A stretch of DNA of 64,000 nucleotides from Phycisphaerales bacterium. Lineage in GTDB: Bacteria; Planctomycetota; Phycisphaerae; Phycisphaerales; UBA1924. The position numbers and the translations under genes are program-made. The stretch covers positions 207,298 through 271,297 of the forward strand of contig OZ245804.1 of NCBI GenBank assembly GCA_965228265.1, read 5' to 3'. Under the pieces are notes generated by a model. The model made no database searches, was not told where the DNA came from, and saw only the letters and a list, made by a program, of their open reading frames with translations. Below are positions 18,993 to 48,001 of this stretch, in pieces (position 1 is the first letter of the stretch; every line of letters begins with the position of its first letter).

Positions 18993-19002
18993 ATGGCCCA
19001 TC

Positions 19003-20220: not shown

Positions 20221-21287
20221 CGACACCAGAGCTGCTCAACTTCAATGACGCCATCTCGCGTTGCATCAAAGCCCCCCATGTGTTGTTGGGCAATGGTTTC
20301 AGCGTGGCGTGCCGGCCCAACCTGTTCAATTACAGCCGCCTCCTGGATCAGGCGAACCTCTCCGGCCGCCCGCAGGCACGTGAGGCGTTCGATCGTCTCG
20401 GTACGACGGACTTCGAGATTGTCATGAACGGCCTCTCCCGGGCCGCTGAGCTTGCAGACGTGTACGGCACCTCTGATGGCTCACTCGCCGACCGATTCCG
20501 CGAGGATGCCGAAGCCCTGAAAGAGGTCCTCGTTCAGACGATTGCCGGGACGCACCCTGACCTGCCCAAGGCGATTACCGATGATGAGTGTGCCGCGGCG
20601 AAGCGATTCCTGTCGCACTTCAGAGGCCGCCGCGACCAGAAGATCTACCTCTTGAACTACGACCTGCTGACCTATTGGGCTCTGATGCGGTCTGATGTTG
20701 AGCCGCAGATTGAGTTCGACGATGGGTTCCGGCAGCCGGAGGACGGACCCGAAGACTGGGTCGTGTGGGAATCGAACCGCCACATCCAGAACCTGTTCTA
20801 CCTTCACGGCGGTTTGCACATCTACCAGTCCGGCCCCGAGATCCGGAAGTTCACATGGTGCAACACCGGTCTGCCGCTGATGGATCAGATCCGGGCTGCT
20901 CTCGACGAGAACCGGTTTCCGCTCTATGTCGCTGAGGGCACCTGGCAGGACAAGATGACGCGGATCCGCCGCAGCGATTTCCTCGGCCGCGGTCGAAGGA
21001 GTTTCCGTCAGATCGGCGGCTCGCTGTTCATCTACGGAATGTCACTGAGCGACAACGACGACCACATCCTGCGAGCGATCGCGAGTGGCAGTGTCGAGCA
21101 GCTCTTCGTGTCCGTGTATGGGGGCATGGAGACCGATGCGAATCGCGAGCTCTGTGAGCGAGCCCTTGCCCTTACCGAGAGGCGGCAAGGAATCGGCGGG
21201 CGGAACCCTAAGCCGCTCAATGTCCAGTTCTTCGACGCCGAGTCGGCGAACGTGTGGGCGGCAGGTGCACCAGGGGAGAAGGCGTGA
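20217..21287 (+). CDS. SIR2-like (DUF4917-type) protein embedded in hsd operon
   Basis: N-terminal HVLLGNGFSVA (GAGxS-like) and KIYLLNYDLLTYWAL (TNYDxLLE-like) motifs characteristic of SIR2_2/ThsA-type NADase domains. ATGA overlap with hsdS. Confidence 0.6.
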   Translation: MTTPELLNFNDAISRCIKAPHVLLGNGFSVACRPNLFNYSRLLDQANLSGRPQAREAFDRLGTTDFEIVMNGLSRAAELADVYGTSDGSLADRFREDAEALKEVLVQTIAGTHPDLPKAITDDECAAAKRFLSHFRGRRDQKIYLLNYDLLTYWALMRSDVEPQIEFDDGFRQPEDGPEDWVVWESNRHIQNLFYLHGGLHIYQSGPEIRKFTWCNTGLPLMDQIRAALDENRFPLYVAEGTWQDKMTRIRRSDFLGRGRRSFRQIGGSLFIYGMSLSDNDDHILRAIASGSVEQLFVSVYGGMETDANRELCERALALTERRQGIGGRNPKPLNVQFFDAESANVWAAGAPGEKA

Positions 21288-22996: not shown

Positions 22997-25900
22997 TGGA
23001 CATGAATGAGCGAATCACGCCGCGTTCTGACGAGGACGCGACCAGTCAGCTTCCCGCACTCAAGGTGCTGATCAACCTCGGCTGGAAGTACCTGACGCAG
23101 GAGGATGCTTTGTCGCTGCGAGGCGGGAGAACCTCCGAGGTCTTACTCTACGGGGTCCTCGAAGACTGGCTCCGAGAGAACAACCGCATCGAGTATCGCG
23201 GCGAGTCAGTGCCCTTCACCGAGGCCAACATCGCGTCGGCAATCGCCACGCTCCGCGACGAACAAGACGACGGCCTCGTCCGCACAAATGAGAAGCTCTA
23301 CGACCATCTTCTGCTCGGCAAGTCGCTCAAGCAAACGGTGCTCGGAGACAGCAAGAGCTTCCAGCTTAAATACATCGACTGGGATGCTCCCGAGAACAAC
23401 GTCTATCACGTGACGGAGGAGTTTGCCGTCGACCGCTCAGGATCGGATAAGACGTACCGCCCGGACTTGGTGCTCTTTGTCAATGGCATCCCTTTGGGCG
23501 TCATCGAGTGCAAGCGGAGCGATCTCGGGCCCAGCAAACCCGCCCCCGTGATTCAGGCCATCGAACAGCACGTCCGCAATCAGAAGCCCGATGGGATTCC
23601 GAAGCTCTATTGGTACTCACAGGTTATTGGGGCACTCTCGCCTGCCGGTGCTCCTTCTGGAGAGGTAGTCACGGACGAGTACGAGTCCGAAGCCAAGCTC
23701 CCCGCCCGGTACGCGACCACAGGTACACCGAAGAAGTTCTGGGCAAGTTGGCGTGAGTCAGCGATCGTCAACGGTGAGTATGAGGTGGCCGACGCCTCTG
23801 TCGATGCGGCGGTCAACGATCGGCTCGGCCAAGCCGATGTTGAGCGACTACTTAAGAACCGAACGGCTTCTGTCAAGGCCGACTTTCACGCGGCAGAAGA
23901 CCAGGGACGCCTCGCGACCGAGCAGGACCGGCTCCTGTGCCGCGTGTTTTCTCCGGAACGCTTGCTTCGATTGTCGCACCGTTACATCGTGTTTGATGCT
24001 GGTGTGAAGAAGATCGCTCGATACCAGCAGTATTTCTGTGTCGAGAAGATCCGCCGTCGCATTCGTGACCTTGGACCGGATGGGATGCGTCGGGGAGGTG
24101 TCGTCTGGCACACCCAGGGCTCAGGGAAGAGCCTCACGATGGTCATGCTCGCGAAGGCCATCGCAATGGACCGGCACCGGGGCGACCTTCTCGGCGGTGA
24201 GGGGGGTGAGCGAATCGTCTTGGTCACCGACCGAGTCGATCTTGATGACCAGATCTACAAGACATTCAAGCACTGCGGCCTGAAGGCTGTTCAGGCGAAT
24301 AAAGGAAGCGATCTGGTCCGGCTTCTCAAGGACACTGAAGCCAAGATCGCGACCACGGTGATTAACAAGTTCGATGCCGCACTCGGCAAAGAACAGATCA
24401 GCGTGGACGATCCCAATGTGATCGTGCTGGTTGACGAGGGGCACAGGACCCAGTTCGGCATTCGTCACTCAACGATGAGACGCGTGCTTCCGAACGCGTG
24501 CTACATCGGTTTCACCGGTACGCCCGTCCGGCGGAAAGACCGGAGCACTGTTGAGAAGTTTGGCGGCATGATCGACTCGTACACAATCAAGCAAGCTGAG
24601 CAGGACCGGGCGGTGCTGCCGATCGTCTACGAGGGAAGGCACGTCATCAAGGACGTCAACCAGGCCGAGATCGACGATTGGTTCGACAAGTACACCGAGG
24701 GCCTCTCCGATGAGCAGAAGCAGGACCTGCGTCGGAAGGTGAGTACCGAAGACCAGATCATGCAGGCCGACCCGGTCATTCGACGGATTGCCCGCGATGT
24801 CTCGGAGCACTACCGCAACTTCCTGCAGGGGACCGGCCTCAAGGCCCAGCTCGTCGCACCATCGAAGGCTGCTGCGATCCGCTACAAGCACTGGCTCGAC
24901 GACCTGGGCGAAGTTCGTTCCGAGGTCTTGATCTCCCCGCCGGACGACCGAGAGGGCGACGAGGACATCTACAAGCCAAACCGTGAGCTCGTCAATCGAT
25001 TTTGGGTCGGCGTGCTGCAGAGATTCGGGACAGATGTTCAGTACGCCAAGCAACTCATCAACTCCTTCAAGCACGGCGACACCGCTGATCCAGAGAGCGA
25101 TGCTCCCGAGATCATGATCGTTGTGGACAAGCTCTTGACCGGCTTTGACGCCCCAGAGAACACGGTGCTCTATTTGGGCCGAAAGCTCAGGGAGCACAAT
25201 CTCCTGCAGGCCATCGCTCGTGTGAACCGGTTGGCGACCGGCAAAGAGCGTGGATACGTCTTGGACTATCGAGGCGTCCTCGAAGAGCTCGACGATGCGT
25301 TCGCCATGTATTCCCGAGATCCTGATGACCCGGAATCGGCTGACCTTGGCTTCGTTGAATCCCTCGCGAGTATCGACAAGGCATGGGATGACCTCCCTCA
25401 GCGACACTCTCTATTGTGGGACACGTTCAAGGATCTTGCCGGCAGCCGCGACCGGGAGGCATACGAGCAGCACCTTGCTGACGAAGCCTTGCGAATCCGG
25501 TTCTACGAACGCTACGCCGCCTTCGCTCGGGTGCTCGATGTCGCGTTGTCATCCCACACATTCCTCAACGCGACACCCAATGCGACAGTCGCGAAGTATC
25601 GCGAAGACCTGAAGTTCTTTGGAGAACTGCGGCGTGCGGTGCGGATCCGCTACGCTGAAGTCGTCGACTTCTCTGAGTATGAGCCGAAGATTCGGAAGCT
25701 GCTCGATCAGTACATCAGTGCGAGCGGTGTCGAGAGCATCACCGGAAAGATCGACCTCTACGATCGGGACCAGCGAGCCGCCGCCCTTGAAGCCGCAGGC
25801 TCCGCATCATCGAAGGCTGAAACAATCGCCAGCAACGTGAGCCGGGTACTGGAAGAGCGTGTCCGCGAGGAAGACCCAGCAACATATCGCAGGCTGTCTG

Positions 25901-26298
25901 CAATGCTCCGGGACATCATGGAGCGGATGCGTACTGGTTGGCTGGCTGCTGCTGAAGCTCTTGCCCAGGTCGAGGATATCGAAAGCGAGGTCATTCGTCC
26001 GACAGCCGACGACGTGCCCGAGTCACTAAGAGACTCGCGGCTCGGTGCCATCATCTTCCGGAATATCAAAGAAGAGCTCGGCGACGCTAGTGAGCAGGCT
26101 GCAGTGTCGATTGAATCAATCATCCGAAACCGGGCGATTGTTGGGTGGCGGAATAATGTCGACTGTCAGAAGTCGATGCGTCAGGCAATCGATGATTTCC
26201 TCTTTGAGCTTGGTGATGCCGTCGGTGCTACTTGGACTCTCGAAACAATCGACAAAGTAGTTGACATGTCTATTGAGCGGGCGAGGGCTGTTTTGTGA
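22996..26298 (+). CDS. hsdR: Type I restriction enzyme R (helicase-endonuclease) subunit
   Basis: Motif I HTQGSGKSLTM, motif II VLVDEGHRTQ, motif III GFTGTP, motif VI LQAIARVNR. 1100 aa. Confidence 0.9.
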   Translation: MDMNERITPRSDEDATSQLPALKVLINLGWKYLTQEDALSLRGGRTSEVLLYGVLEDWLRENNRIEYRGESVPFTEANIASAIATLRDEQDDGLVRTNEKLYDHLLLGKSLKQTVLGDSKSFQLKYIDWDAPENNVYHVTEEFAVDRSGSDKTYRPDLVLFVNGIPLGVIECKRSDLGPSKPAPVIQAIEQHVRNQKPDGIPKLYWYSQVIGALSPAGAPSGEVVTDEYESEAKLPARYATTGTPKKFWASWRESAIVNGEYEVADASVDAAVNDRLGQADVERLLKNRTASVKADFHAAEDQGRLATEQDRLLCRVFSPERLLRLSHRYIVFDAGVKKIARYQQYFCVEKIRRRIRDLGPDGMRRGGVVWHTQGSGKSLTMVMLAKAIAMDRHRGDLLGGEGGERIVLVTDRVDLDDQIYKTFKHCGLKAVQANKGSDLVRLLKDTEAKIATTVINKFDAALGKEQISVDDPNVIVLVDEGHRTQFGIRHSTMRRVLPNACYIGFTGTPVRRKDRSTVEKFGGMIDSYTIKQAEQDRAVLPIVYEGRHVIKDVNQAEIDDWFDKYTEGLSDEQKQDLRRKVSTEDQIMQADPVIRRIARDVSEHYRNFLQGTGLKAQLVAPSKAAAIRYKHWLDDLGEVRSEVLISPPDDREGDEDIYKPNRELVNRFWVGVLQRFGTDVQYAKQLINSFKHGDTADPESDAPEIMIVVDKLLTGFDAPENTVLYLGRKLREHNLLQAIARVNRLATGKERGYVLDYRGVLEELDDAFAMYSRDPDDPESADLGFVESLASIDKAWDDLPQRHSLLWDTFKDLAGSRDREAYEQHLADEALRIRFYERYAAFARVLDVALSSHTFLNATPNATVAKYREDLKFFGELRRAVRIRYAEVVDFSEYEPKIRKLLDQYISASGVESITGKIDLYDRDQRAAALEAAGSASSKAETIASNVSRVLEERVREEDPATYRRLSAMLRDIMERMRTGWLAAAEALAQVEDIESEVIRPTADDVPESLRDSRLGAIIFRNIKEELGDASEQAAVSIESIIRNRAIVGWRNNVDCQKSMRQAIDDFLFELGDAVGATWTLETIDKVVDMSIERARAVL

Positions 26299-27026
26299 CT
26301 GGAGAGCCCAAGCAACGAAGCATCATGGTTGGCTCGGAGAAACTTCCGTACGTGGTTGTTCGGACATCCGGTAACTCAGCTCGACTCGTCGTTGCTCCCT
26401 CTGGAGCCGTCGAGGCCAGGGTGCCGGACGGCCGCTCCGACAAATCTATCGAACAGTTCGTCCGCAGCAAGGCACGGTGGATCATCCGGCAGCAAGACTA
26501 CTTCGCGTCATTTAGGCCACGTGATCCACGGCGTCAGTATGTCAGTGGCGAGACCATTCGGTACCTGGGGCGTCAGTACCGACTGAAGGTCAGCCCGTCG
26601 GAACAGCAATCCGCGAAGTTGCTCGGAAAGCACCTTGTCGTCGGGATCCAAGCGGGCAGCGACAGTGGTGAAGTACGACGCATTGTCCTCGATTGGTATC
26701 GCGTGCGTGCGGCCGAGGTGTTTCGCCAGCAAGCAGACAACCTGCACGAGAGGCTGGCGGCACACGGCGTTGGTGAGGCACAGATCAGCGTGCGTTGGAT
26801 GACACGACGCTGGGGCAGTTGCACACCGACAAATCAGATCATTTTGAATCCGCTTCTCGTGATCAATCCAATTGACTGCGTCGCATATGTCGTCGCCCAC
26901 GAGTTGTGTCACCTCAAGGTGCCAAACCATGGGGACGCGTTCTACCAACTGCTCTCGACAGTCATGCCAGACTGGCGGAAGCGACGCGAACGACTTGGGC
27001 GGTCAGGGGCTCACCTTGACCTTTGA
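26295..27026 (+). CDS. YgjP-like M48-family zinc metallopeptidase (DUF45)
   Basis: HELCHLKVPNHGDAFYQLL (HExxH). GTGA overlap with the hsdR stop. Usual accessory of type I R-M loci. Confidence 0.8.
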   Translation: MTGEPKQRSIMVGSEKLPYVVVRTSGNSARLVVAPSGAVEARVPDGRSDKSIEQFVRSKARWIIRQQDYFASFRPRDPRRQYVSGETIRYLGRQYRLKVSPSEQQSAKLLGKHLVVGIQAGSDSGEVRRIVLDWYRVRAAEVFRQQADNLHERLAAHGVGEAQISVRWMTRRWGSCTPTNQIILNPLLVINPIDCVAYVVAHELCHLKVPNHGDAFYQLLSTVMPDWRKRRERLGRSGAHLDL

Positions 27027-27764: not shown

Positions 27765-28045
27765 CCGGCTGCACGGTCTCCTGAGCGCGGGGCCGGTTCA
27801 ATAGGTCGGACGGGACTCGAAACCGCACGAGGTTTCCCCCACGACCTTGTCGGTGGCACCCAGCAGGTGCCACCGGGAAAAACCGCGCGTCTGCCATTCC
27901 GCCACCGACCCGAAGCTACAGCCCGGACAGTTCACTTTGAACCGCCGGAGCAACAGATGTTCTGTATGGAACCGGCGCGGAACCGAGCACCGTGGCACCC
28001 TAACGGTTCGGGCTCTGTCCACGAAATACGGCCCTCACGGGCCGT

Positions 28046-28071
28046 GAAAATACCCCCCGAAGAACTCGAAC
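28046..28071 (-). repeat. Direct repeat DR2: 26/27-nt copy of the tRNA-Lys 3' terminus plus flank (internal att remnant)
   Basis: gaaaataccccccgaagAactcgaac versus the tRNA locus gaaaataccccccgaagGactcgaac (47924-47949). Confidence 0.6.
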
Positions 28072-28367
28072 AAGGGCGTGTTTTACCGAGAAATACGCCT
28101 GTTTGTGATACAGGCGGCATCAAATCCGGCAGCATCCAGGCCCCCTTGGTAGCTCAGTCCCGAGCTGAAACCACTTCATTATCGCCTGATCCAGAGTTGG
28201 CGGCGGAAGTCGCGGCATGGGCCGATCTGCCCGCGGCGATCCGGGCGGGGATTCTGGCCATGATCGAGGCGAGCTATCCGCAGTGAAGACTCTGACCGCT
28301 CTCACCGGTTGAATTCGGAATGATAGTGCTCCAGGTGCCAAACTTACTTCGCAGGTATCAGTGACTT

Positions 28368-29387
28368 TCAAGTGAACACCGAGACAGTCGTCAGATCACC
28401 CTCACCGACTTTCTGGTGAACCCGGTGGTGCCCGAATGATGCGATCACCTGAGCATTCGTCATTGCGTGGTCGCTGAGTGAACCAGTGAGGAACGCCCCA
28501 CCGCCGGCAAGGGCGAGCGGCAACATCAGCTGGTCGGCCAGATGCTCCCAGACGGGGACGCCAGCGGCGAGGTATTTCTGGACCTCCTTCGCCGCGTTAG
28601 ACGCGACTCGCTCGGCGGAAACGCCGCGCTCCCCGAAGCCCGTGAATACCTCGGTGATGTCCTCCCGCTGAACGATGAGGCTCAGGGTGTTGCCGGGGCC
28701 GGCGCTCTCCTGAACCTGCTCGATCTGGAGACAGTCATCCTCCCAGCCGAGCATCGTGTTGATCGTGTTCAGCTCGCGCTTGGCGATTGCTCCATCGAGA
28801 GCGGCGATCGTGGCGACTGCTCGGCGCGCGACAACCGGTCTCACCTCGACGAGTTCAATCGGTGACAGGCGCTCGGCCGGTTCAATGTCGACGCGGATCT
28901 GCCCGCCGCCACCGGGGTAGAAGCCGTGGCGGTCGAGATGGATGCGGACCCTCGGCCCCATCCGTTCCAAGAGCGGAAGAAACGCATGAGTAAGATAGGT
29001 AACACTTGGCGCAAACAAGTTGTGTGTCCCGCCTGTGATGGTGAGCGTTGAGGGTTCCTTTGCAAGCATGAGCGCCGGAAGCACGGTCTGTAGGACGAGC
29101 GTTGTGCTTCCCGCTGTGCCGATCGCAAAGCTGTACACCCCACCGCGAACGGGACCAGGTCTGAACTCAAGGGCAATCGATCCGATCTCGGCGCCGATAG
29201 CGCTGGCGCCGCACACCTCTGCCGCAGCGAGCGTGGAGGTCAGATGCTGCCGAAGCAAGCCCGGCTTTGGCCGATTGACGCGGATGTTCTCGATGCGAAA
29301 GGGTTGGCCCGTGACCATGGACAGGGCGAGAGCAGTCCGCAGGATCTGCCCGCCGCCCTCGCCCTGGCTGCCGTCGATCTTAATCAT
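28368..29387 (-). CDS. rtcA: RNA 3'-terminal phosphate cyclase
   Basis: MIKIDGSQGEGGGQILRTALALSMVTGQPFRIENIR...HLTST. 339 aa. Confidence 0.9.
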   Translation of the reverse strand: MIKIDGSQGEGGGQILRTALALSMVTGQPFRIENIRVNRPKPGLLRQHLTSTLAAAEVCGASAIGAEIGSIALEFRPGPVRGGVYSFAIGTAGSTTLVLQTVLPALMLAKEPSTLTITGGTHNLFAPSVTYLTHAFLPLLERMGPRVRIHLDRHGFYPGGGGQIRVDIEPAERLSPIELVEVRPVVARRAVATIAALDGAIAKRELNTINTMLGWEDDCLQIEQVQESAGPGNTLSLIVQREDITEVFTGFGERGVSAERVASNAAKEVQKYLAAGVPVWEHLADQLMLPLALAGGGAFLTGSLSDHAMTNAQVIASFGHHRVHQKVGEGDLTTVSVFT

Positions 29388-30877
29388 CGGCCTTGTCCCC
29401 GTCCTTGATCACGAAGCGTGCTTCGAGGCGTGCAATCTCGGTCGCGAGATCTGCTTCCTCGACGGAGCGCAGCACCTCGTCGAAGTCCTTGTACGCCGCG
29501 GGAGCCTCATCGATCGGATAGTTCCGGCAATTCGTGAGGATGTCACGCTCCTTGAATGACGCGTCGATCGCGCCCTGGTCGAGCGCCTTGGCGGCGGCTC
29601 GGCGACCGAGCGCTCGGCCTGCGCCGTGATTCACGCTGTAGCACGACTTGACGGCACCCTCGTTTGCGACCATGACGGACGAGCCCGCCTGCGGATTGCC
29701 CGGGAGAAGAATGGGGTGGCCCGTCTTCTCGAATAGTGTGCCCTTGAGCGCGTGGTGGCCCCCGGGAAACGCGCGAGTCGCGCCCTTGCGGTGCACCCAG
29801 TGCGGCTTGTTGTCCAATATCTCCTGGCGCGCGATGTTATGGCTGATGAAATACACCAGGCGACCCGTCACGCCAGGCAGAACCTCCTGAAATGCTTCGA
29901 GCACGAGCGCGTTGATGAGAAGATGGTTCACGGTCGCGAAGTTGGCACCGAGCGCCATGTCGTCAAGGTAGGCATTGGCTTGGTCGCTCCCCAGCGGCGC
30001 GTGCACGAGCTGGCGATCGTTGCCCGGCAGCGGGATGCCCCAGGTCGCAAAGTGCTGCTCAAGTGACTTGAACTGACTTGACGCGAGATCGTGCCCGAGA
30101 CCGCGTGAGCCGCAGTGCGAGAGGAACGCCACGCCACCATCGCGGAGACCGAAGACTTCGGCAGCTTGGTGCGCACGCTCGCCCTCGCGGACGCGCACGA
30201 CCTCGCACTCGCCGAAGTGGTTGCCCCCGCCGTAGGAGCCGAGCTGGCGGATCTTGCCCGGGAGCTTGTTGCGGAATCGGCCCTCCTGCTTGAGGAATTC
30301 AAGGCGTGCAAGAAGGCCCTCGGTCGAGCCTTCGTGCGCGAAGTGGGCGCTGTCTTCGCAGCGGTCGGCCCATTCGGGCGGGATACCGAGTTCATTGCAC
30401 ACACCGGCGGACGCGCCCTCGGTAATCACGCGCTCGCCGATTGCGTCATCAACGAGACGCGACTTGGATGCATGGCGCTGGCCTCGGCCTGCGCCGGTAG
30501 GCGTGCGCTCGCAGATGGCATCAATGATCGCCCGGCGCGTGCGTACATCACGGACAGCGTCCTCGTCGATGTCGATCGCAAGAAGACTCATCGAACACTT
30601 GATGTCGACACCGACGGGGCCGGGGTAGATATGCGTTGGGCTTGCCATGACGCAGCCGACCGGGGTGCCGTAGCCCACGTGCGCGTCCGGGTTGAGCACA
30701 AGGTGCGACACACCCGGCGCGGTGGCGGAATTGATGGCCTGCTGGATGCACTGCTCGTCGAACGTCTCGCGGATAGCGGGAGTTCCGATGACGGTGACGG
30801 GCTTCTGGTTGGTCGGGAGCGGCAGCATCGCGGTAGCCTCGCCGGTCTCGATGAATGGATTTGTTGACTCGGACATG
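29380..30877 (-). CDS. rtcB: RNA-splicing ligase RtcB
   Basis: Motifs NPDAHVGYG, YGGGNHFGE, NHAGAGR. Start set at MSESTNPF (ATG 30877) because the longer ORF would run into the tRNA-His gene. Confidence 0.9.
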
Positions 30878-30935
30878 ATTGATCTCCGTACAGAGTGGAG
30901 TGCTACAGGAATGGAAATTGATGATACTGAACAAG

Positions 30936-31010
30936 GGTGAACGAAGGGGCTCGAACTCTCAACCCCCGGGCTCACAACCCGGTGCTCTGCCCAATTGAGC
31001 TACGCTCACC
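30936..31010 (-). tRNA. tRNA-His (anticodon GTG) with encoded G-1
   Basis: Folded by hand: G-1, acceptor GTGAGCG/CGTTCAC, D arm GCTCAATTGGGCAGAGC, anticodon arm CCGGG-TTGTGAG-CCCGG, T loop TTCGAGC, discriminator C. Confidence 0.8.
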
Positions 31011-31022
31011 ATCGCAACGAAA

Positions 31023-31098
31023 CAGCCTCGGCAGGACTCGAACCTGCGACCCCCGCATTCGTAGTGCGGCGCTCTGATTCCGACTGAGCTACGAGGCT
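31023..31098 (-). tRNA. tRNA-Arg (anticodon ACG)
   Basis: Acceptor AGCCTCG/CGAGGCT, anticodon arm CCGCA-CTACGAA-TGCGG, T arm GCAGG-TTCGAGT-CCTGC. Confidence 0.8.
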
Positions 31099-31115
31099 TC
31101 GAACTTGTTTGTCAA

Positions 31116-31189
31116 TCTGGGTGAGAGGACTCGAACCTCTGGCCTCGTGCTTCCAAGGCACGCGCTCTGCCAAGCTGAGCTACACCCAG
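31116..31189 (-). tRNA. tRNA-Pro (anticodon TGG)
   Basis: C1:G72 acceptor CTGGGTG/CACCCAG, D arm GCTCAGCTTGGCAGAGC, anticodon arm CGTGC-CTTGGAA-GCACG, T arm AGAGG-TTCGAGT-CCTCT, discriminator A. Confidence 0.8.
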
Positions 31190-31215
31190 TCGATTGCTTT
31201 CGTTCACGAATCGAA

Positions 31216-31289
31216 TAGCTCCGGCAGGAGTCGAACCTGCAACGAACGGTTTCTAAGACCGCCGCCTCTACCAATTGGGCTACGGAGCC
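31216..31289 (-). tRNA. Atypical tRNA: anticodon UAG (nominally Leu) but class-I (5-nt variable loop) architecture
   Basis: Acceptor GGCTCCG/CGGAGCT (G1-U72 wobble), weak D stem, anticodon arm GCGGT-CTTAGAA-ACCGT, T arm GCAGG-TTCGACT-CCTGC. No long variable arm. Confidence 0.5.
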
Positions 31290-31334
31290 GAGTCTTTGAA
31301 TCGTGACCGCACGCTTTCGCGCGGGGTCACGGGG

Positions 31335-32666
31335 TTAGGGGTTTGCGTTGGCCTGCTTCTGGCGGATCAGCGAGCCGATCTGCTCGGACAGGTCGCCCGA
31401 GCCGAGCACGAAGGTTGCGTTGGCTCCCTTCATGATCTCCTGCAGCGCCTCGAGTTCCTTCATGCGAGCGAGCACGGGGTTCTCCGCGAGCAGCTTGGCG
31501 GTGTTCGCCTGGCTGCGCGCGGCCGCGGTCTCCTCGCGACGACGGATGAGGTTGGCCTCGGCCTGCTTCTGGGCGATGATGACCTCGTTGAGGATGGTCT
31601 TCATGTCGCCCGGCAGGATGAGGTCCCGCAGGCCGACACCGGAAACAGCGACACCGAATGCGTTTGCCTTCGGCGAGATCGTGTTGGCGATCTCGGAAGA
31701 TACCTCGTCCTTGTCGGCGAGGAGCCTCTCGAGGGTCCGCCCCCCCACCGCGGTGCGGAGCGCGAGCTGCGCCTCGCGGTAGAGCGCCTGCTTCCACTCG
31801 GTGACCTCCGTCACCGCCTTGAGCGGATCGATCACACGGAAGGTCACCACGAGGTTGACCCGCAGCGAGACCTTGTCCGAGGTCAGGATCTCCTGACCCT
31901 GGATGTCCTCGATCTGCTCGCGCAGATCCACGGACTTCCAGGTGATGTTCGAGCCGCCCTTCCAGTAGACGTAGAGACCTGCGCCGACCTGGTCGATGAG
32001 CTCGCCATCACGGAAGATCAGGACGGTCTCGTGCGATTCGGCCCTGATGCCGGTGAAGGCGTTTGCCGAACCCGGCAGAAGAAGGACGGGCTCGATCTTT
32101 GGGTGATCGAAGCGGACATCGTTGACGGTGTACCGCTCGACCTTGATCGAGACGCCCTCGTTCCAGTAGGCGTGGATGCCCTTGGCGAGGACGGCGTTCA
32201 GGCGGCCGTCCACCCAAACGAGCGCACGCTCATCATCCTTAAGGTCGATTACTGTGAGTCTCGACGCGAGTCGCTCGTCCTCGATGAGAGTGCGGAGCCT
32301 TGCGTGCGTGAATCTCGGCTCGCAGATGTCGATGACCTCGACGTTGGCCGAGCCCGCCCAGAAGGCGTGACGCCCCTCATCGATAACTTCCTCGAGACAA
32401 TTGTCCACCCACACGAGCGCGATCTCGCGCTTGCGGAGGTTGATGACCTCGAGCAGATCCGACAACAGGTGGTTCTGAGTCAACGCCTTGAGCTGGTCGT
32501 GTTCGAACCTTGGCATGAGAGTGTCGACCACTTCGATGCGGTCCCTGGATGACCAGGGCCAGACGCGAGGCAGACGACGCACGCCATGACCGACGACCTT
32601 GTAGAGGTCGTTATGACGGAACCAAAGCCCGAGTTCGTTGTTTCTGATGCGGTATGTGTTCCACAT
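31335..32666 (-). CDS. SPFH/band-7 (slipin-like) protein with N-terminal repeat region
   Basis: C-terminal SPFH domain ...ILTSDKVSLRVNLVVTFRVIDPLKAV...QALYREAQLALRTAVGGRTLERLLADKDEVS...AQKQAEANLIRRRE. N-terminus has about three ~60-aa repeats (ALVWVD...HAFWAG / HAYWNEG). Start at MWNTYRIR (32666). Confidence 0.7.
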   Translation of the reverse strand: MWNTYRIRNNELGLWFRHNDLYKVVGHGVRRLPRVWPWSSRDRIEVVDTLMPRFEHDQLKALTQNHLLSDLLEVINLRKREIALVWVDNCLEEVIDEGRHAFWAGSANVEVIDICEPRFTHARLRTLIEDERLASRLTVIDLKDDERALVWVDGRLNAVLAKGIHAYWNEGVSIKVERYTVNDVRFDHPKIEPVLLLPGSANAFTGIRAESHETVLIFRDGELIDQVGAGLYVYWKGGSNITWKSVDLREQIEDIQGQEILTSDKVSLRVNLVVTFRVIDPLKAVTEVTEWKQALYREAQLALRTAVGGRTLERLLADKDEVSSEIANTISPKANAFGVAVSGVGLRDLILPGDMKTILNEVIIAQKQAEANLIRRREETAAARSQANTAKLLAENPVLARMKELEALQEIMKGANATFVLGSGDLSEQIGSLIRQKQANANP

Positions 32667-33032
32667 GGGACGGCTCCTTTCTTTGAAGCTCAAGGGGATT
32701 GAAACGAAACGGAAACGTTTGTTGAAATGCGAGCAGAGAGGTCCTTCCGAGCCAGCGCCCCGGTTGGCGGCGGGGATCGGCTTGAGAACCGGCAGTGAGC
32801 GTGCGGCAGACGGAACTCGGGAGCGATCCGCACGCCTCCTTCGGGAGACGATCTGGAACGCCCGGTCGTGCCGGGCCGCGTTGCTTTGTCGGTTCGGTAT
32901 CCGCGGATCCGCGAGCCGCGTCGCGGGTGCCTGGCCGTCGATGCGTCGGCGCTGGGCGCCTTGCATCGCACGGGTCGGCTGCGCTCGGGTGGATGGCTAC
33001 CCCTCGACTCGCTCATGTGCTTGCCCTTAACC

Positions 33033-33082
33033 GGAGCGAGCGGGGGGAGTCGAACCCCAGTCTTTTTGAAGACTTACCAGTT
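33033..33082 (-). pseudogene. tRNA 3'-half remnant (T arm TGGGG-TTCGACT-CCCCC + acceptor CGCTCGC), no 5' half
   Basis: Canonical T loop and acceptor 3' strand, but no matching 5' acceptor or D arm upstream. Confidence 0.4.
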
Positions 33083-33155
33083 GTAACGAGACCGGATTTG
33101 AACCGGCTACCGTCGAGTTCTCAACTCGATGCTCTACCAAATGAGCTACTCGTGA
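33083..33155 (-). tRNA. tRNA-like gene, anticodon GAG, class-I architecture with C2-U71 mismatch (possible pseudo-tRNA)
   Basis: D arm GCTCATTTGGTAGAGC, anticodon arm TCGAG-TTGAGAA-CTCGA, T arm GCCGG-TTCAAAT-CCGGT, acceptor TCACGAG/CTCGTTA. Confidence 0.4.
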
Positions 33156-33240
33156 TGCTTTGCCCCGCCGACAGAACCCTGAGTCGCGAGACACGGGGCG
33201 CCGATCGGCACCGCGTCGCAGGACGACGGGGCGCCACAAA

Positions 33241-33313
33241 TGGATGCCGAGGGAATCGAACCCTTTCCCGGCGGGGGACAAATCTCCCCGCCGGGGCCGC
33301 CTGGCAGCGATCC
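33241..33313 (-). other. tRNA-like element with canonical T arm (GGGTTCGATTCCC) but over-long anticodon-region stem and 2 acceptor mismatches
   Basis: GGATCGC...CGGCGGGGAGATTTGTCCCCCGCCG...AGGGTTCGATTCCCTCGGCATCCA. Confidence 0.3.
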
Positions 33314-33521
33314 GTACATGAACGTGTGCAAACCCCGGGTTGTCAGAGAGGCGAGGAGCCGTGCGGCTCGACATGACATATGCAGAAAGCGTGCCAGTTC
33401 GAAGAGACATTCAAAATATGCCCTGATGGCGCCAGAACGCCGTTTTAAAGATTCATGTACAAATGATGCTTGGCAAAGTATGATCTGCCCATATCGCTTT
33501 TGATATATATGGATCATCTCT

Positions 33522-35138
33522 ATGCCCAACCCGAAATCGCCACCTCGCAAAAAAACCGTCGTCATCGGCATCCTCGGAACCACCCTCGATGCGGGCAAGG
33601 GGGCCAAGCGATGGGAACGCTGGCGGCCCACCGTCTCGCTCTGCCAACACGAGGACCTGCTCGTCGACAGACTCGATCTGCTGCATGACAGACGGTCAAC
33701 ATCTCTTGCCAACACGATCATCGAAGACATCGCCAGTGTGTCTCCCGAGACAAAGGTTGTTGAGCACGACGTCGAGATGCTCGATCCGTGGGACTTTGAG
33801 GAGGTCTACGGCCTACTTCACGAGTTTGCTTCGGGCTATCCCTTTGACACAGAGCTTGAGGAATACCTCGTTCATATCACGACCGGCTCACACGTGGCGC
33901 AGATCTGTAACTTTCTACTCACGGAGGCACGGTACTTCCCCGCGAGGCTCATTCAGTCGAGCCCGGCGCGCAAAGCAGAAGAACGGGCCGGCAACTACAG
34001 CATTATCGATCTGGATCTCTCGAAGTACGACCGTCTCGCGTCACGCTTTGAGCGCGAGCACACGGACGCCATCGCCTCACTGAAAGGAGGCATCGCGACC
34101 CGCAACCCCGCGTTTAACAGCCTGATCGAGAGGATCGAGCACGTTTCCGCCCGCACCACCGACCCGCTCCTGATCACAGGGCCCACCGGCGCCGGGAAAT
34201 CACGGCTCGCAGGGAGGATCTTTGAGCTCCGCAGGCACCGTCGACTCGTGGAAGGGAAGCTCGTTGAGGTCAACTGCGCCACATTGCGAGGCGACGGCGC
34301 GATGTCGACACTCTTTGGACACAAGAAAGGAGCCTTCACGGGCGCCATGGCCGATCGTCCCGGGCTTCTCCGCTCGGCGGACGGTGGGATGCTGTTTCTC
34401 GATGAGATCGGTGAACTCGGGCTCGACGAGCAAGCGATGCTTTTACGCGCGATCGAAGAGAAGCGGTTTCTCCCTCTCGGGGCCGACACGGAGGTACGGA
34501 GTGATTTCCAGCTCATCGCGGGCACGAACCGCGACCTGGGCGCCCGGGTGCACGAGGGGCTCTTCCGTGAGGACCTGCTCGCACGGATCAACCTCTGGAC
34601 GTTCTGTCTGCCGAGCCTTCGCGAACGGCCCGAGGACATCGAACCGAACCTTGAGTTCGAACTCGAGCGTTTCGCACGGGAACGTGGCCGACTCATCCGG
34701 TTCAGCGCCGAGGCGAGAGAGCGATTCCTAGCCTTTGCGATCCGATCCGATTCGAGCTGGAAGGGTAACTTCCGCGATCTCGGTGCGGCACTCACGCGGA
34801 TGGCGACGCTCGCGCCCGGGGGGAGGATATCGAGCGATATCGTCGACGAAGAGATATCAAGGCTCAGAATTCAATGGCAGAGCCATGAATCGCAATCCGA
34901 TGACGCGGAGCTTCTGGGTTACTTTGATGCCGATCGGCTTGCCGAGATCGACTTGTTCGACAGGGTGCAGCTCGCTGCGGTGCTCCGGGTGTGCCGGGAT
35001 TCGGCCTCGCTCTCAGACGCGGGGCGTAAGCTCTTTGGAGCCTCGAGAGAGAAACGCTCAACGGTCAACGACTCCGATCGTGTCCGGAAGTACTTGGCGA
35101 AGTTTCGGCTGAGCTGGGACCGGTTGCACGGTACCTGA
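33522..35138 (+). CDS. rtcR: Sigma-54-dependent transcriptional regulator RtcR (N-terminal CARF, AAA+ sigma54-activator domain, C-terminal HTH)
   Basis: Walker A ITGPTGAGKS. Sigma54-activator GAFTGA motif (GHKKGAFTGAMADRPGLL). Arg-finger region LFREDLLARINLW. RtcR-type CARF N-domain. Confidence 0.85.
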   Translation: MPNPKSPPRKKTVVIGILGTTLDAGKGAKRWERWRPTVSLCQHEDLLVDRLDLLHDRRSTSLANTIIEDIASVSPETKVVEHDVEMLDPWDFEEVYGLLHEFASGYPFDTELEEYLVHITTGSHVAQICNFLLTEARYFPARLIQSSPARKAEERAGNYSIIDLDLSKYDRLASRFEREHTDAIASLKGGIATRNPAFNSLIERIEHVSARTTDPLLITGPTGAGKSRLAGRIFELRRHRRLVEGKLVEVNCATLRGDGAMSTLFGHKKGAFTGAMADRPGLLRSADGGMLFLDEIGELGLDEQAMLLRAIEEKRFLPLGADTEVRSDFQLIAGTNRDLGARVHEGLFREDLLARINLWTFCLPSLRERPEDIEPNLEFELERFARERGRLIRFSAEARERFLAFAIRSDSSWKGNFRDLGAALTRMATLAPGGRISSDIVDEEISRLRIQWQSHESQSDDAELLGYFDADRLAEIDLFDRVQLAAVLRVCRDSASLSDAGRKLFGASREKRSTVNDSDRVRKYLAKFRLSWDRLHGT

Positions 35139-35287: not shown

Positions 35288-36607
35288 ATGCCACACGTTG
35301 CTTTCGTCTCGATGTCGGGCTTTCGGGTGCATGAGGCATCACTGGCGGAACTCGGCATGACCCTTCCCGGGCTGGCCGGGCGGGCCAGAGCGATCACGGC
35401 TCTTCCCCCGCTTGGCCTGCTCACCCTCGCAGGGCTCACGCCGGGCTCTTGGGATGTGAGCCTGTTTGAATCGCCGACTGTGACGGACGACCTTGTCGAA
35501 CGTATCGCCGGTAAGCGCCCGACGCTCGTCGCCATCTCCGCCTTGACGGCCTCGATTCTGGAGGCGTATTCGCTGGCCGATACGCTGCGTGCCCTCGGGA
35601 TCGCGGTTGTCCTTGGAGGTTTGCATGTCACGGCGTGCCCGATCGAGGCGGGTCGTCACGCGGATGCGATCGTGATCGGTGAGGGCGAGCCAGTCTGGGC
35701 GTCACTCCTTCGGGACGCGGAGCGAGGGAAGCTCAGGCCCGAATACCGGGCCAGGGCTCCGTTTGATCTGGCTCTGGCACCGCTTCCAAGGTTTGATCTG
35801 CTCGGCAAGGATGAACGTCCGCGCTACACGCTGCAGGCGACCCGCGGCTGCCCGTTTGCCTGTGATTTCTGCGCGGCGAGCAGGCTTCTTGGCCCGTTCC
35901 GAACGAAACCTCCCGAGCGGATCGCCGCGGAGCTCGACGCGATCAGAGCCATGGATGCGCGTCCGTTTCTTGAACTCGCCGACGACAACACCTTTGCACA
36001 GGGCGGCCCGCACGACGAACTGCTTGAAGTCATGGGGTCATCGGGTGCGCGGTGGTTTACCGAATCGGACTGGCGTGTCGGGGAGAATGCCGCGTTGCTC
36101 GGGAAGCTCGCCGATGCTGGGTGTGTTCAGCTGCTCATCGGTCTCGAATCCCTTGTCCACGAGCACCGAGGCATGGGAGCCAAGCGAACTTCGATGGATC
36201 GCATGATGGACGCCGTGGAGAGCATCCAGCACGCAGGGATCGCGGTGATCGGGTGCTACATAGTCGGCAGCGACGGCGAAACCCCCAAGACAATCGATCG
36301 CCTTCGCTGTTTCCTCGATTCGGACCCGTGCGCGGACGCCCAGATCACGCTTCAGACACCATTCCCGGGGACCGCCCTTCGCAAGCGATTGCACGCCGAG
36401 AGTCGCTTGCTCCGTGACAGGGATTGGTCGCACTGCACGCTCTTCGATGTCACCTACCAACCAGACAAGATGTCAGTCAGCGATCTGGAGCACGGCTTTC
36501 GGCAGCTCCTGATCGATGCGTTTGGCTTTACTCCGACACGCCGCCGGAGAGAGATTCGTCGCACCACATGGGCTCGGAATCCCTCGCTTGCAAGAGGAGC
36601 GTTCTGA
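35288..36607 (+). CDS. B12-binding-domain radical SAM protein
   Basis: N-terminal cobalamin-binding-like domain (AISALTASILEAY...VVLGGLHVT) followed by radical SAM CxxxCxxC (TRGCPFACDFCA). Confidence 0.8.
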   Translation: MPHVAFVSMSGFRVHEASLAELGMTLPGLAGRARAITALPPLGLLTLAGLTPGSWDVSLFESPTVTDDLVERIAGKRPTLVAISALTASILEAYSLADTLRALGIAVVLGGLHVTACPIEAGRHADAIVIGEGEPVWASLLRDAERGKLRPEYRARAPFDLALAPLPRFDLLGKDERPRYTLQATRGCPFACDFCAASRLLGPFRTKPPERIAAELDAIRAMDARPFLELADDNTFAQGGPHDELLEVMGSSGARWFTESDWRVGENAALLGKLADAGCVQLLIGLESLVHEHRGMGAKRTSMDRMMDAVESIQHAGIAVIGCYIVGSDGETPKTIDRLRCFLDSDPCADAQITLQTPFPGTALRKRLHAESRLLRDRDWSHCTLFDVTYQPDKMSVSDLEHGFRQLLIDAFGFTPTRRRREIRRTTWARNPSLARGAF

Positions 36608-37896
36608 TGAATGCGTCGGTCCTCCCAAAGTATCTTCTGGGTTCGAAGAGCGCCATACTCGAAGTTGCCAATTCACCCATGTCATTCATCATCGGCCTGG
36701 TGTTTGTCATTTCGGCCGGACTGGCCCGCGAGTACGACGGCGAGGATCTCATCCACCAGCCCTGGCACGCACTCCGTCCGTTGGGCGCGTCGCTGGTCTC
36801 GGGGACAATTCTGTTTCTTGTGATCCATCTTGCCGCCCTGCTCAACAAGCACAGACCACCGTCATATTTCGGTGCCTGGCGATCGTTCATGGGGCTCTTC
36901 TGGATGACCGCCCCGATGGCATGGCTTTATGCAATCCCTTACGAGCACATGATGACACCGGTCGGTGCTGTCTCGCTGAATCTGTGGACGCTCGCAATTG
37001 TAGCCGCCTGGCGCGTGTGGCTGATTGCAAGGGTGATCAGCGTCGTGTACGGCATAGGAGGATTGTCATCGTTCTTTCTCGTCATGTTCTTTGCGGACGC
37101 TGTTACATTCACCGTGGTGACCCTGGCGCCCACGCCAGTGATCGATGTCATGGGCGGCATCCGCCACACTGATCGAGATGCGTTAATCGCCGAGGTCACC
37201 TTCTCGGTGACCATCCTCTCGGTAATGACCGCTCCAGTTTGGCTCATTGGGGCTCTGATTGCTACCGCCAGATTGAAACCCCAATGGCCTGAACCGAACA
37301 CTCACCCAGCTGAACGCGGATCTCGCGGACTTCTCAGAGTCGCGGTTCTTGCGGTGGTCGCATTCATTCCCTTGCTCATTCTGAGCCAGCCGGAACAGAT
37401 CAACAAGCACAGAGTGGAGACACTCTTCAAGCAGGGCAGAGTGGATGAAGCGCTCGACAGAATGTCTGCCCTGCAGCCGAATGACTACCCGTCACACTGG
37501 GATCCACCTCCACGGCTCGGATACAGGGAGAACAAGCCGGATCTCGACCGAATACGAGACGCGATGGCTACAAAGTGGCCTGCTGACTGGGTAGCCGATC
37601 TCTACCTTGCGAAGATTGGGCGCAAGCTCAAACAAAGCGTGCTGTATTATTGGGCTGATGCAAGCTGGTCCCAGATCGTCGATGAGATCCAGGAATACGC
37701 CCAATACTACTCGAATGGATCCACCTCAAGAGTGTCTGTGGAGCAAGCTCGGACCGCTCGTTTTCTTCTCGATTACGATGACTCACTGGGTGAGAATGAT
37801 CGCCGCGCACTTGAGAGACTCATCGCGATCGCAACACCCACTGAATTAGAATCGATCGATGAATCAGACCAGATATTCCAAGACATTCCGGATTGA
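36607..37896 (+). CDS. Polytopic membrane protein of unknown function, translationally coupled to radical SAM gene
   Basis: TGATG overlap. About 8 predicted TM helices followed by a ~150-aa soluble C-terminal domain. Confidence 0.55.
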   Translation: MNASVLPKYLLGSKSAILEVANSPMSFIIGLVFVISAGLAREYDGEDLIHQPWHALRPLGASLVSGTILFLVIHLAALLNKHRPPSYFGAWRSFMGLFWMTAPMAWLYAIPYEHMMTPVGAVSLNLWTLAIVAAWRVWLIARVISVVYGIGGLSSFFLVMFFADAVTFTVVTLAPTPVIDVMGGIRHTDRDALIAEVTFSVTILSVMTAPVWLIGALIATARLKPQWPEPNTHPAERGSRGLLRVAVLAVVAFIPLLILSQPEQINKHRVETLFKQGRVDEALDRMSALQPNDYPSHWDPPPRLGYRENKPDLDRIRDAMATKWPADWVADLYLAKIGRKLKQSVLYYWADASWSQIVDEIQEYAQYYSNGSTSRVSVEQARTARFLLDYDDSLGENDRRALERLIAIATPTELESIDESDQIFQDIPD

Positions 37897-42416: not shown

Positions 42417-42716
42417 TCAGACACCAGGCTTGCCGTCGTGTTCAGGCTGCTCGAGGTCCACGAAACGGAGATCATTCAGCACGAGGACATCGGCATCGCC
42501 GGCAAAGTCTCGATGTAGATAGAAGGCCAACTGCCGCTCGGCCTCGATGCCGGCTCGGAGTTTCGGATCGGACGGGAGCGTGCTCGACTGAGATGGCTTC
42601 ACGATCATGTCCTTGCTCCTGCTCTGCGGCATGACTGGGGGCATTTCGCATTCATTAGAACCATGGCCACGCACAATGGAGACGAGCACGACATCCAGCA
42701 TGGTCTGTACGATCAC
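42417..42716 (-). pseudogene. Truncated NERD-domain gene (N-terminal ~75 aa only), paralogue of 8992-10068
   Basis: MIVKPSQSSTLPSDPKLRAGIEAERQLAFYLHRDFAGDADVLVLNDLRFVDLEQPEHDGKPGV. Ends where the kinase gene stops. Confidence 0.6.

Positions 42717-47928: not shown

Positions 47929-48001
<73 letters not shown>

Follow-up and report, generated by a model that had tools for sequence, protein, structure and literature searches.

In a 64,000-nucleotide stretch of the genome of a Phycisphaerales bacterium (GenBank assembly GCA_965228265.1, contig OZ245804.1, positions 207,298 to 271,297; referred to below as the window), the region encoding the RNA-repair proteins RtcA and RtcB and their regulator RtcR very probably represents a single operon under the control of RtcR and sigma-54. 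This operon belongs to the class that combines an SPFH (Band-7) protein with tRNA-like RNA, and it is unbroken by foreign genes. Between rtcB and rtcR lie 2,645 bp, in which an SPFH gene is accompanied by five genes of tRNA type, all with the orientation of rtcBA. An earlier reading of the same DNA, made without database searches (hereafter the sequence-only reading), had described the repair module as split by a cluster of tRNAs together with an SPFH gene. That description does not hold: these genes are conserved elements of uniform orientation, lying between rtcB and a sigma-54 promoter next to rtcR. Comparison with other loci further suggests that the window carries a clade-specific variant of the predicted Band-7/b7a-tRNA class of Rtc operons (b7a, Band-7-associated), with a large structured leader RNA and slightly aberrant tRNAs biased toward CNN codons.

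All four protein families of the module, RtcA, RtcB, SPFH and RtcR, were identified by Pfam (Table 1). The genes lie where the sequence-only reading had placed them, its gap of about 2.6 kb is real, and its recognition of an RNA-repair module stands. The rtcB and rtcA genes are in tandem, the start of rtcA overlapping the stop of rtcB by 8 nt. The start of rtcB is the ATG at 30876, preceded by the ribosome-binding site GGAGA; a 531-residue open reading frame (ORF) from the GTG at 30975 was rejected, as it runs into tRNA-His. Likewise, the SPFH protein starts at the ATG at 32666, behind AAAGGAG, because the alignment of homologues fixes the start there; a 543-residue ORF was rejected, its additional part being arginine-rich non-coding sequence. 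The solved structures closest to the RtcB of the window are those of Pyrococcus horikoshii RtcB and human RTCB, and RtcB proteins of the E. coli/Pseudomonas type are only about 27% identical to it. The RtcR of the window is 60–82% identical to the RtcR of many phyla.

The promoter is central to the assignment. The window was scanned with the strict sigma-54 consensus TGGCAC-N5-YTGCW, allowing at most one mismatch. The one match without mismatches, TGGCACGCTTTCTGCA, lies 142 bp from the rtcR start and is directed away from rtcR, toward the leader, the SPFH gene, the tRNAs and rtcBA. The same element is found approximately 95–175 bp from the rtcR start in most of the 80 RtcR loci described below, whichever gene comes next. 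Thus, the direction in which the operon is read is settled by the sigma-54 promoter near rtcR, which faces the cargo. At 30880-30940 and 31300-31340, where the sequence-only reading had suggested looking for such a promoter, there is no match to the strict consensus within one mismatch, and inspection by eye found no looser GG-N10-GC element. Between the rtcR start and the promoter lies an inverted repeat of the form CGATA-N6-(T/G)ATC(G/A), which precedes the −24 box by approximately 95–110 bp in the window as well as in 11 related loci. This is the position expected for the site of an enhancer-binding protein, and RtcR presumably binds there.

Every part downstream of the promoter has the same orientation. 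The spacers between tRNAs measure 12–26 nt, tRNA-His is 58 nt from rtcB, and a simple consensus scan of the minus strand from 33372 to 28368 found neither a sigma-70-like promoter nor a terminator-like site. Taken together, the co-orientation, the short spacers and the lack of such internal sites argue for co-transcription. A GC-rich hairpin without a T-run (GTGACC...GGTCAC, 31303-31330), situated between the SPFH stop and the first tRNA of the array, may be a processing or stability element.

Table 1. Features of the rtc region, in coordinates of the window
Feature	Coordinates	Strand	Support
Att-like relic of the tRNA-Lys 3' end, 27 nt	28045-28071		blastn, 96% identity to 47923-47949
Terminator-like hairpin with T-rich tail, likely operon end	28096-28116	-	Consensus scan
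rtcA, RNA 3'-terminal phosphate cyclase	28368-29387	-	Pfam RTC 1.4e-77 and RTC_insert
rtcB, RNA 3'-phosphate/2',3'-cyclic-phosphate ligase, archaeal/human type	29380-30876	-	Pfam RtcB 3.4e-101
tRNA-His (GUG), encoded G-1 at 31010, C73	30935-31009	-	ARAGORN, Rfam
tRNA-Arg (ACG)	31023-31098	-	Rfam 64.2 bits
tRNA-Pro (UGG), C1-G72, A73, A37 in place of the usual G37	31116-31189	-	Rfam 68.4 bits
tRNA-Leu-like (UAG), 74 nt, A73, A37	31216-31289	-	ARAGORN; Rfam 61 bits
SPFH/Band-7 ("slipin") gene, 443 residues	31335-32666	-	Pfam Band_7 2.3e-26
Structured leader RNA, ~670 nt, modules A–E	32700-33372	-	Conservation in 12 loci (nhmmer)
Leader module E	32700-33035	-	
Leader module D, hairpin and third T-arm GGGGUUCGAnUCCCC	33036-33082	-	
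Leader module C, b7a tRNA-like element ("Leu"-GAG), 73 nt	33083-33155	-	ARAGORN; Rfam tRNA 57.5 bits
Leader module B	33160-33237	-	
Leader module A, acceptor/T-arm minihelix, 10-bp hairpin replacing the D and anticodon arms	33238-33318	-	
Sigma-54 promoter (-24/-12) TGGCACGCTTTCTGCA	33381-33396	-	Sole zero-mismatch match in 64 kb
Candidate RtcR upstream activating sequence, inverted repeat CGATA-N6-GATCA	33481-33496		Motif conservation
rtcR: CARF (RtcR domain), sigma-54 AAA+ activator, lid domain	33522-35138	+	PF06956 2.8e-84; PF00158 Sigma54_activat 2.3e-46

The second line of evidence comes from comparison across genomes. Eighty loci with close relatives of RtcR were drawn from 185,579 species genomes, and RtcB, RtcA, SPFH and tRNA genes were mapped in them (individual loci are given below as L numbers). 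The sequence-only reading had held that rtcR normally sits divergently adjacent to rtcBA. This is true of E. coli but not generally: rtcR and a divergent rtcB are less than 400 bp apart in 6 of 62 loci, whereas cargo of 1.5–3 kb lies between them in 42. An SPFH homologue is present near rtcR, on the rtcBA strand, in 19 of 67 RtcR loci, usually together with tRNA-like genes of 72–76 nt. The order rtcR, tRNA-like element, SPFH, tRNAs, rtcB, rtcA recurs in Phycisphaerales; in Pseudomonas, a pair of tRNA-like elements is followed by SPFH and then by rtcB; and in Myxococcota and Desulfobacterales the same parts occur in another order. What had been taken for an insertion is thus a set of conserved, co-oriented parts in these taxa. 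Half of the eight SPFH-less loci checked (L025, L031, L056 and L059) have a YrlA Y RNA, scoring above the Rfam gathering score, just upstream of rtcB.

The four closest loci, in which the SPFH protein is 81–94% identical, retain the module but have no flanking genes in common, one of them lying again beside a type I restriction-modification (RM) system. Because the arrangement is kept in distant relatives while the flanks differ at every locus, the module is, as judged by these comparisons, mobile as a unit and not a part of core-genome synteny. The sequence-only reading had named an identical arrangement in distant relatives, as simple core-genome synteny, as the outcome that would count against it; the conserved arrangement was indeed found there, but the synteny of a core genome was not.

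The architecture corresponds to a published prediction. According to a 2018 preprint from the Wolin laboratory (bioRxiv 10.1101/312249), Burroughs and Aravind (2016) reported that in certain bacteria RtcB lies beside a Band-7 protein and a predicted tRNA-like non-coding RNA, b7a-tRNA, which bears a strong likeness to authentic tRNA and is apparently interchangeable with Rsr/YrlA. Both characters of this class are present in the window, where an SPFH gene belongs to the RtcB operon and a tRNA-like gene adjoins the Band-7 gene. As far as that preprint describes it, the predicted system likewise places RtcB beside Band-7 and the tRNA-like RNA under RtcR, is laterally spread and replaces Rsr/Y RNA; its prediction includes one tRNA mimic, whereas the clade of the window adds a leader of ~670 nt and one to seven tRNAs between SPFH and rtcB. 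In the literature covered, which did not include the original 2016 text, no earlier description was found of the ~670-nt covarying leader with three T-arm modules, of four near-canonical tRNAs between SPFH and rtcB, of the 81% CNN bias of the array tRNAs in the clade, of an anchor-less SPFH protein, or of SPFH homologues beside tRNA arrays, including a viral array of 36 tRNAs.

Two further Rtc operons are instructive for comparison. The rsr-yrlBA-rtcBA operon of Salmonella Typhimurium (PMC7790460; Chen et al. 2014, PMC4201824) likewise has a divergent rtcR and a sigma-54 promoter, and, as in the window, a cargo protein and tRNA-mimicking non-coding RNAs lie between the promoter and rtcBA. The Salmonella cargo consists of a Ro60/TROVE protein and Y RNAs, whereas that of the window consists of the SPFH protein together with tRNA-like elements and tRNAs. 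The gap between rtcB and rtcR contains no Ro60/TROVE gene, and a Y RNA in this gap was rejected: the best YrlA match reaches 33.5 bits against a gathering score of 69, and the matches span two tRNAs. The rtcR-rtcBA locus of E. coli agrees with the window in its three proteins and in its sigma-54 logic; in the window, tandem rtcBA, a divergent CARF/sigma-54 regulator and a sigma-54 promoter are all found. Unlike the window, E. coli has no cargo between promoter and rtcB, a minimal layout shared by the six loci mentioned above, and its RtcB is of the shorter type.

The leader, i.e., the RNA from the promoter to the SPFH start, could be aligned not only across the four closest loci but also with less closely related ones (SPFH 61–65% identical), and it carries three T-arm modules. 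For modules A and B, RNAalifold gave 46 pairs, 15 of them with compensatory changes. In these modules, 93.7% of pair cells are paired, versus 40–51% when the partners are slid by one to three columns, and the covariation score is 0.33, versus 0.06–0.12 in the slid controls. The minimum free energy of the whole leader has a z-score of −3.6, and the support for structure in modules D and E is weaker than that for A and B. A search of the leader against Rfam 15 gave no family match besides tRNA; matches to tRNA-Sec and mascRNA (E~2) were rejected, as they only mirror the T-arm minihelix. The full leader was also rejected as a universal feature, since by nhmmer modules A, D and E occur only in the closest 12–16 loci; the tRNA-like module C is the only one that is widespread. 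Motif proxies such as GGATACCG proved too crude for defining the distribution.

Where the sequence-only reading had counted four tRNA genes, ARAGORN and Rfam agree on five (Rfam scores of 54–68 bits), and the one nearest to rtcR is module C of the leader, between SPFH and rtcR. This element has a short variable arm and one mismatch in the acceptor stem. In relatives, the elements found at this position have unconserved "anticodon" loops of 6–7 nt (GAU, GUU, GCA, "ac"), and the Pseudomonas counterpart has a tetraloop hairpin in place of the anticodon arm. Of 105 SPFH loci, 65 have a tRNA-like element upstream of the SPFH gene, the median distance being 411 nt; here too the "anticodon" is unconserved, and 13 of the 65 elements lack a 7-nt loop. 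By these comparisons, the element is a non-decoding tRNA mimic of the b7a type, not a spare tRNA. A separate case is L004, a locus with RtcR and RtcB and without SPFH, in which a 184-nt stretch just upstream of rtcB (5620-5803; Rfam tRNA, 33.6 bits) possibly represents a tRNA-like element that has been interrupted or elaborated.

The four genes between SPFH and rtcB, in contrast to this mimic, look like working tRNAs with oddities. Of 11 His-GUG genes compared, 9 retain G-1, which lies in a conserved "atg" leader, and all 11 Pro-UGG genes retain C1-G72/A73. Position 37 of Pro-UGG is A in six genes, those of the window's subclade, and G in the five genes of the sister group. For "Leu" with CAG or UAG anticodons, A73 is present in 11 of the 12 genes listed, and a GCC/GGC D-stem and the D-loop are common to 11 array copies. 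In the Leu-UAG of the window, the 3-bp D-stem has the form GCC-CAAUUGGUAGA-GGC, which we take to be of the E. coli tRNA-Leu(CAG) type. A class-II tRNA-Leu has a long variable arm and approximately 85 nt, whereas the two "Leu" calls of the window measure 74 and 73 nt, with variable loops of 4–5 nt. Short-arm CAG/UAG "Leu" genes also occur in at least nine related loci (L002, L003, L081-L084, L086, L092 and L096), and among the calls near SPFH genes in related loci 19 of 20 "Leu" and 7 of 7 "Ser" are short. In L144, a second array of seven tRNA genes (68-982), beyond rtcR and on the rtcR strand, contains long-arm Ser (86 and 89 nt) yet a short, 75-nt "Leu"-CAG.

The A37 of the window's tRNA-Pro and tRNA-Leu is unusual, because in bacteria G37 is the m1G37 site of tRNA-Pro and of the tRNA-Leu that reads CUN codons. 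CCA is absent from the operon tRNAs, as it is from the housekeeping tRNA-Lys of the window, and the tRNA leaders ("atg", "ga") and U-rich trailers are conserved. Thus, the operon tRNAs appear to keep their aminoacylation identity marks and to deviate in the anticodon loop (A37) or in the structure of an arm (short-arm Leu).

The make-up of the array varies: the window and L081 have Leu-Pro-Arg-His, L082 has Asp in the place of Arg (Leu-Pro-Asp-His), L083 and L084 stop at Leu-Pro-Arg, and L087 has Arg alone, Arg-ACG being the commonest member. This variation among close relatives argues that the operon tRNAs are accessory copies and not the sole genomic ones. The conserved anticodons are UGG, ACG, GUG and YAG. 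G36, which reads CNN codons, is found in 43 of 53 array members (81%) in the clade of the window, a figure inflated by shared ancestry within the clade, and in 30% in more distant loci. With four clustered genes and one more, the locus falls outside tRNA array units, or L-arrays, of at least about 20 dense tRNA genes; its array is physically within the rtcB operon, behind the sigma-54 promoter. It can be compared with the trn operon and the TrcR regulon of Anabaena, in which extra tRNAs are silent until translational stress and are co-regulated with rtcB or lie near it (PMC8421152, PMC10272220). A long tRNA array, rtcB and the slipin gene alr0740 are jointly de-repressed in a trcR mutant (PMC10272220), and the operonic tRNAs have been seen cleaved and were proposed to sustain the tRNA pool or to be sponges for toxin RNases (PMC8421152). 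Cyanobacterial arrays differ in comprising 20–43 tRNAs at separate loci, under a TrcR-repressed promoter of the sigma-70 type, whereas the window has four to five genes inside an RtcR/sigma-54 operon.

The SPFH protein has over 5,000 homologues, most of which are annotated as "slipin". Its AlphaFold model (predicted local distance difference test score, pLDDT, 83) comprises three N-terminal beta repeats of ~65 residues, the SPFH domain and long C-terminal helices. Across homologues the number of N-terminal repeats ranges from two to five, and the C-terminal helical segment is nearly invariant. The protein shares the SPFH domain and coiled-coil helices with stomatin, HflK/C, QmcA and flotillin, and differs from them in having no N-terminal membrane anchor: the maximum 19-residue hydropathy is 1.14, from which we conclude that no transmembrane segment is present. 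Foldseek matched the SPFH part of the model to stomatin, HflK/C, QmcA and prohibitin (E 5e-16 to 1e-10) and the full model to the major vault protein (MVP) over approximately 500–600 columns (E 1e-11 to 1e-8). All solved SPFH proteins in the list of matches are ring or cage oligomers, so that by analogy a soluble cage is a reasonable inference for the protein of the window.

A comparison with the eukaryotic vault (MVP with its SPFH-like shoulder, vault RNA and the TROVE-domain protein TEP1) can be based on the SPFH fold, the N-terminal beta repeats, the long helix and a genetic tie to small structured RNAs. The vault-like nature of the N-terminal repeats was, however, rejected when the N-terminal 205 residues were modelled separately. 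This model (pLDDT 90.6) has no match in the Protein Data Bank at E <= 0.001, and MVP is not among its top 50 matches. The analogy is therefore only loose: the repeats, taken alone, show no significant match to those of MVP. In the model, these residues look like duplicated N-terminal beta parts of SPFH domains, and the full-length MVP matches probably stem from the SPFH domain and the helix. A Pseudomonas aeruginosa SPFH protein, PaFlo8 (PA14_60630/PA4582), has been described as embedded in the rtc locus (2026 study, PMC13086221). It likewise lies between rtcR and rtcB and has a patchy distribution resembling that of horizontally transferred genes; it is 31–35% identical to the SPFH protein of the window, and in Pseudomonas it is accompanied by a tandem pair of tRNA mimics instead of a tRNA array.

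The association of SPFH with tRNA genes extends, at the level of gene neighborhoods, beyond RtcB. A first scan of metagenomes with the single SPFH protein confirmed no relatives, and the scan was repeated with an alignment. Among 80 metagenomic loci of the SPFH subfamily, arrays of 5–11 tRNA-type genes are found beside the SPFH gene (10 upstream and one downstream in L097, eight in L140, seven in L095). Three viral contigs of IMG/VR encode SPFH homologues. In one of them, a 94-kb contig (L165; IMGVR_UViG_3300007072_000340), an array of 36 tRNAs precedes a homologue that is 42% identical (902-7098 for both); ~430 bp separate the end of the array from the SPFH gene downstream of it, the genes that follow encode an HNH-AP2 homing endonuclease and a thioredoxin, and the contig has no Rtc genes.

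These data are consistent with the following scheme. RtcR would bind the inverted repeat ~100 bp upstream of the promoter, and its CARF domain would sense tRNA fragments that carry a 2',3'-cyclic phosphate, by analogy with Salmonella Typhimurium, where damaged tRNAs activate RtcR (Hughes et al. 2020, PMC7790460). RtcR would then activate the sigma-54 promoter, the presence and position of which are observed, giving one long minus-strand transcript of the leader (with the tRNA mimic and two extra T-arm modules), SPFH, the four tRNAs, rtcB and rtcA. RNase P and RNase Z would cut the tRNA-shaped elements, thereby freeing the leader RNAs and the four tRNAs and parting the SPFH message from that of rtcBA. 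In keeping with the known biochemistry of their families, RtcA and RtcB would heal and reseal cleaved tRNAs, while the operon tRNAs would top up the CNN-decoding pool, soak up anticodon nucleases, or both. We consider it reasonably likely that the four tRNAs are decoding spares, a role that does not exclude that of sponges. The connection to tRNA damage and to supplementary tRNAs, made already in the sequence-only reading, is reasonable and fits published ideas on related systems (PMC7790460, PMC8421152). Finally, the anchor-less SPFH protein may form a ring or cage, as other SPFH proteins do. Its partner might be the tRNA-like leader, the two serving as scaffold or cofactor in the way of Rsr and Y RNA in the alternative operon form. 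Of all steps in the scheme this one is the weakest and, being drawn by analogy, it is proposed tentatively. The whole module would be mobile cargo of a defense island at tRNA-Lys.

A bolder version, which is in our opinion unlikely, combines these elements: a vault-like soluble SPFH cage and the multi-T-arm leader would form a tRNA-handling particle that captures broken tRNAs or presents them to RtcB, the operon tRNAs (short-arm Leu, A37 in Pro and Leu) would be variants that evade nucleases and so allow CNN codons to be read while an anticodon nuclease is attacking, and the partnership would be reused by array-bearing phages as anti-defense. If true, it would define a new class of bacterial ribonucleoprotein, joining SPFH cages to tRNA homeostasis.

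The most serious competitor of the spare-tRNA reading holds that the four tRNAs are decoys, sponges or baits, which are cut instead of housekeeping tRNAs or supply the cyclic-phosphate fragments that keep RtcR on. The sponge role proposed in Anabaena for stress-induced operonic tRNAs co-regulated with rtcB (PMC8421152) speaks for it. So do the anticodons, whose conservation and G36 bias are as expected if the set of nuclease targets matters, and the A37 and missing Leu arm, which are odd for working tRNAs. Nevertheless, the acceptor-end identity marks (G-1/C73, C1-G72/A73 and A73) are conserved, and a decoy for anticodon-loop nucleases would need none of them; a purely decoy function is therefore disfavored, and we regard this explanation as possible but doubtful. 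It is improbable that the tRNA-shaped elements are chiefly punctuation, at which RNase P and RNase Z divide the sigma-54 transcript into pieces of independent stability, the RNAs themselves having no role. The elements do stand exactly at the leader/SPFH and SPFH/rtcB junctions, the two further acceptor/T-arm minihelices in the leader are substrates of the RNase P type, and the conserved tRNA leaders and trailers fit as well. One element per junction would, however, be enough, and arrays of 3–11 with conserved anticodons and identity marks exceed this need, as do ~400 nt of further conserved leader structure.

It is quite improbable that the tRNAs constitute an ordinary housekeeping operon with its own promoter that merely neighbors the rtc genes. 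Their amino-acid set equals that of the E. coli argX-hisR-leuT-proM operon of Arg, His, Leu and Pro tRNAs, their Rfam scores are normal, and their want of an encoded CCA is shared with the tRNA-Lys of the window. Yet "Leu" has no class-II arm, Pro and Leu have A37, and the 45 bp after the SPFH stop contain no sigma-70-like promoter. Moreover, the tRNA genes travel with the module into differing genomic contexts, and the loss of His in L083 and L084, the replacement of Arg by Asp in L082 and the reduction to Arg in L087 are incompatible with the status of sole essential copies. Least credible of all is the view that a canonical divergent rtcR-rtcBA pair was split by an unrelated tRNA cluster and SPFH gene during assembly of the island, with possible disturbance of RtcR control: the compact arrangement does exist at 6 of 62 loci and the island is a mosaic with att relics and a diverged duplication, but this cargo is found again, with order and orientation preserved, in different phyla and among the closest relatives although the flanks are unrelated, the sigma-54 promoter stays beside rtcR upstream of the cargo with none beside rtcB, a Y RNA occupies the same slot in SPFH-less loci, and the architecture was predicted in 2016, as relayed in the citing preprint (bioRxiv 10.1101/312249).

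Several points weigh against the interpretation of the region as one RtcR-controlled operon of the SPFH/tRNA-like class with functional spare tRNAs. According to the citing preprint, b7a-tRNA is a prediction without experimental validation (bioRxiv 10.1101/312249), and deletion of PaFlo8 gave no phenotype in standard assays (PMC13086221). The profile search found all leader modules in 12 loci, and only there is the full leader recognizable by sequence. Promoters beyond the simple consensus could drive the tRNAs separately. The A37 of tRNA-Pro and tRNA-Leu might impair decoding instead of protecting it, and the case for Pro-UGG, Arg-ACG and His-GUG being extra copies rests on variation of the array, 64 kb of the genome being covered.

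In our opinion, the clade of the window offers an informative version of the system, with a defined sigma-54 promoter, a candidate RtcR site, a leader supported by covariation and a well-modelled soluble SPFH protein. The deviations of the tRNAs (no Leu arm, A37), together with the CNN bias, suggest which tRNAs come under attack, and the shared SPFH partner joins two literatures, that on Rtc repair operons and that on stress-induced and phage tRNA arrays. If the tRNAs are inducible spares or sponges, the module would be a compact, transferable "tRNA damage kit" with a bearing on toxin-antitoxin biology, phage defense and counter-defense.

The surroundings of the module are those of a tRNA-gene-targeted defense island, as confirmed by tRNA-Lys repeats (blastn) and defense cargo. 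The sequence-only reading had correctly recognized tRNA-Lys-derived repeats, restriction systems on one side of the module and Lamassu on the other. The 3' 42–45 nt of a tRNA-Lys(CUU) gene (47928-48002, minus strand) recur at 8706-8750, matching 47926-47970, and the 27-nt relic lies just beyond rtcA and the operon terminator, where it bounds the sub-island with the rtc module. Counting the original, the tRNA-Lys(CUU) 3' end is present three times (45 and 27 nt, and 45 nt in the original), which suggests that two islands of ~19–20 kb lie in tandem, integrated at the same tRNA-Lys gene. The left one contains a type IV restriction enzyme, McrBC and a type I RM system with PDC-S21 and HEC-07. The right one contains the rtc module, a B12/radical-SAM protein, an extracytoplasmic function (ECF) sigma factor, a Ser/Thr kinase, a truncated copy of the type IV enzyme and Lamassu (LmuA/LmuB, 45004-47843). 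The core genes rpmF, plsX, fabH and fabD come after tRNA-Lys. No domain of an integrase or a recombinase was detected in the ORFs adjoining the att sites, and what is left of the island is probably fixed.

Immediately downstream of rtcR and in its orientation, 35288-37896 encodes a B12-binding radical-SAM protein and an unannotated multi-pass membrane protein of 490 residues. L099 and L024 also have weak homologues of the radical-SAM protein close to SPFH or rtcR; an additional association is possible, but the cases are too few for a judgment. In the type I RM operon (17481-26298; hsdM, hsdS, hsdR), two candidate defense genes, PDC-S21/DUF4917 (20217-21287) and HEC-07 (21254-22996), lie between hsdS and hsdR, and a YgjP-like metallopeptidase (26295-27026) follows the operon. 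The diverged duplication comprises 1.85 kb that are 74% identical between 42418-44258 and 9878-11721; within it, a truncated PLD-helicase ORF (42824-44203) reproduces the full-length type IV restriction enzyme (10048-13245) over its N-terminal half. Far from the rtc module, the coding region 60463-61400 contains internal tandem repeats of ~160 bp that are 65–73% identical.

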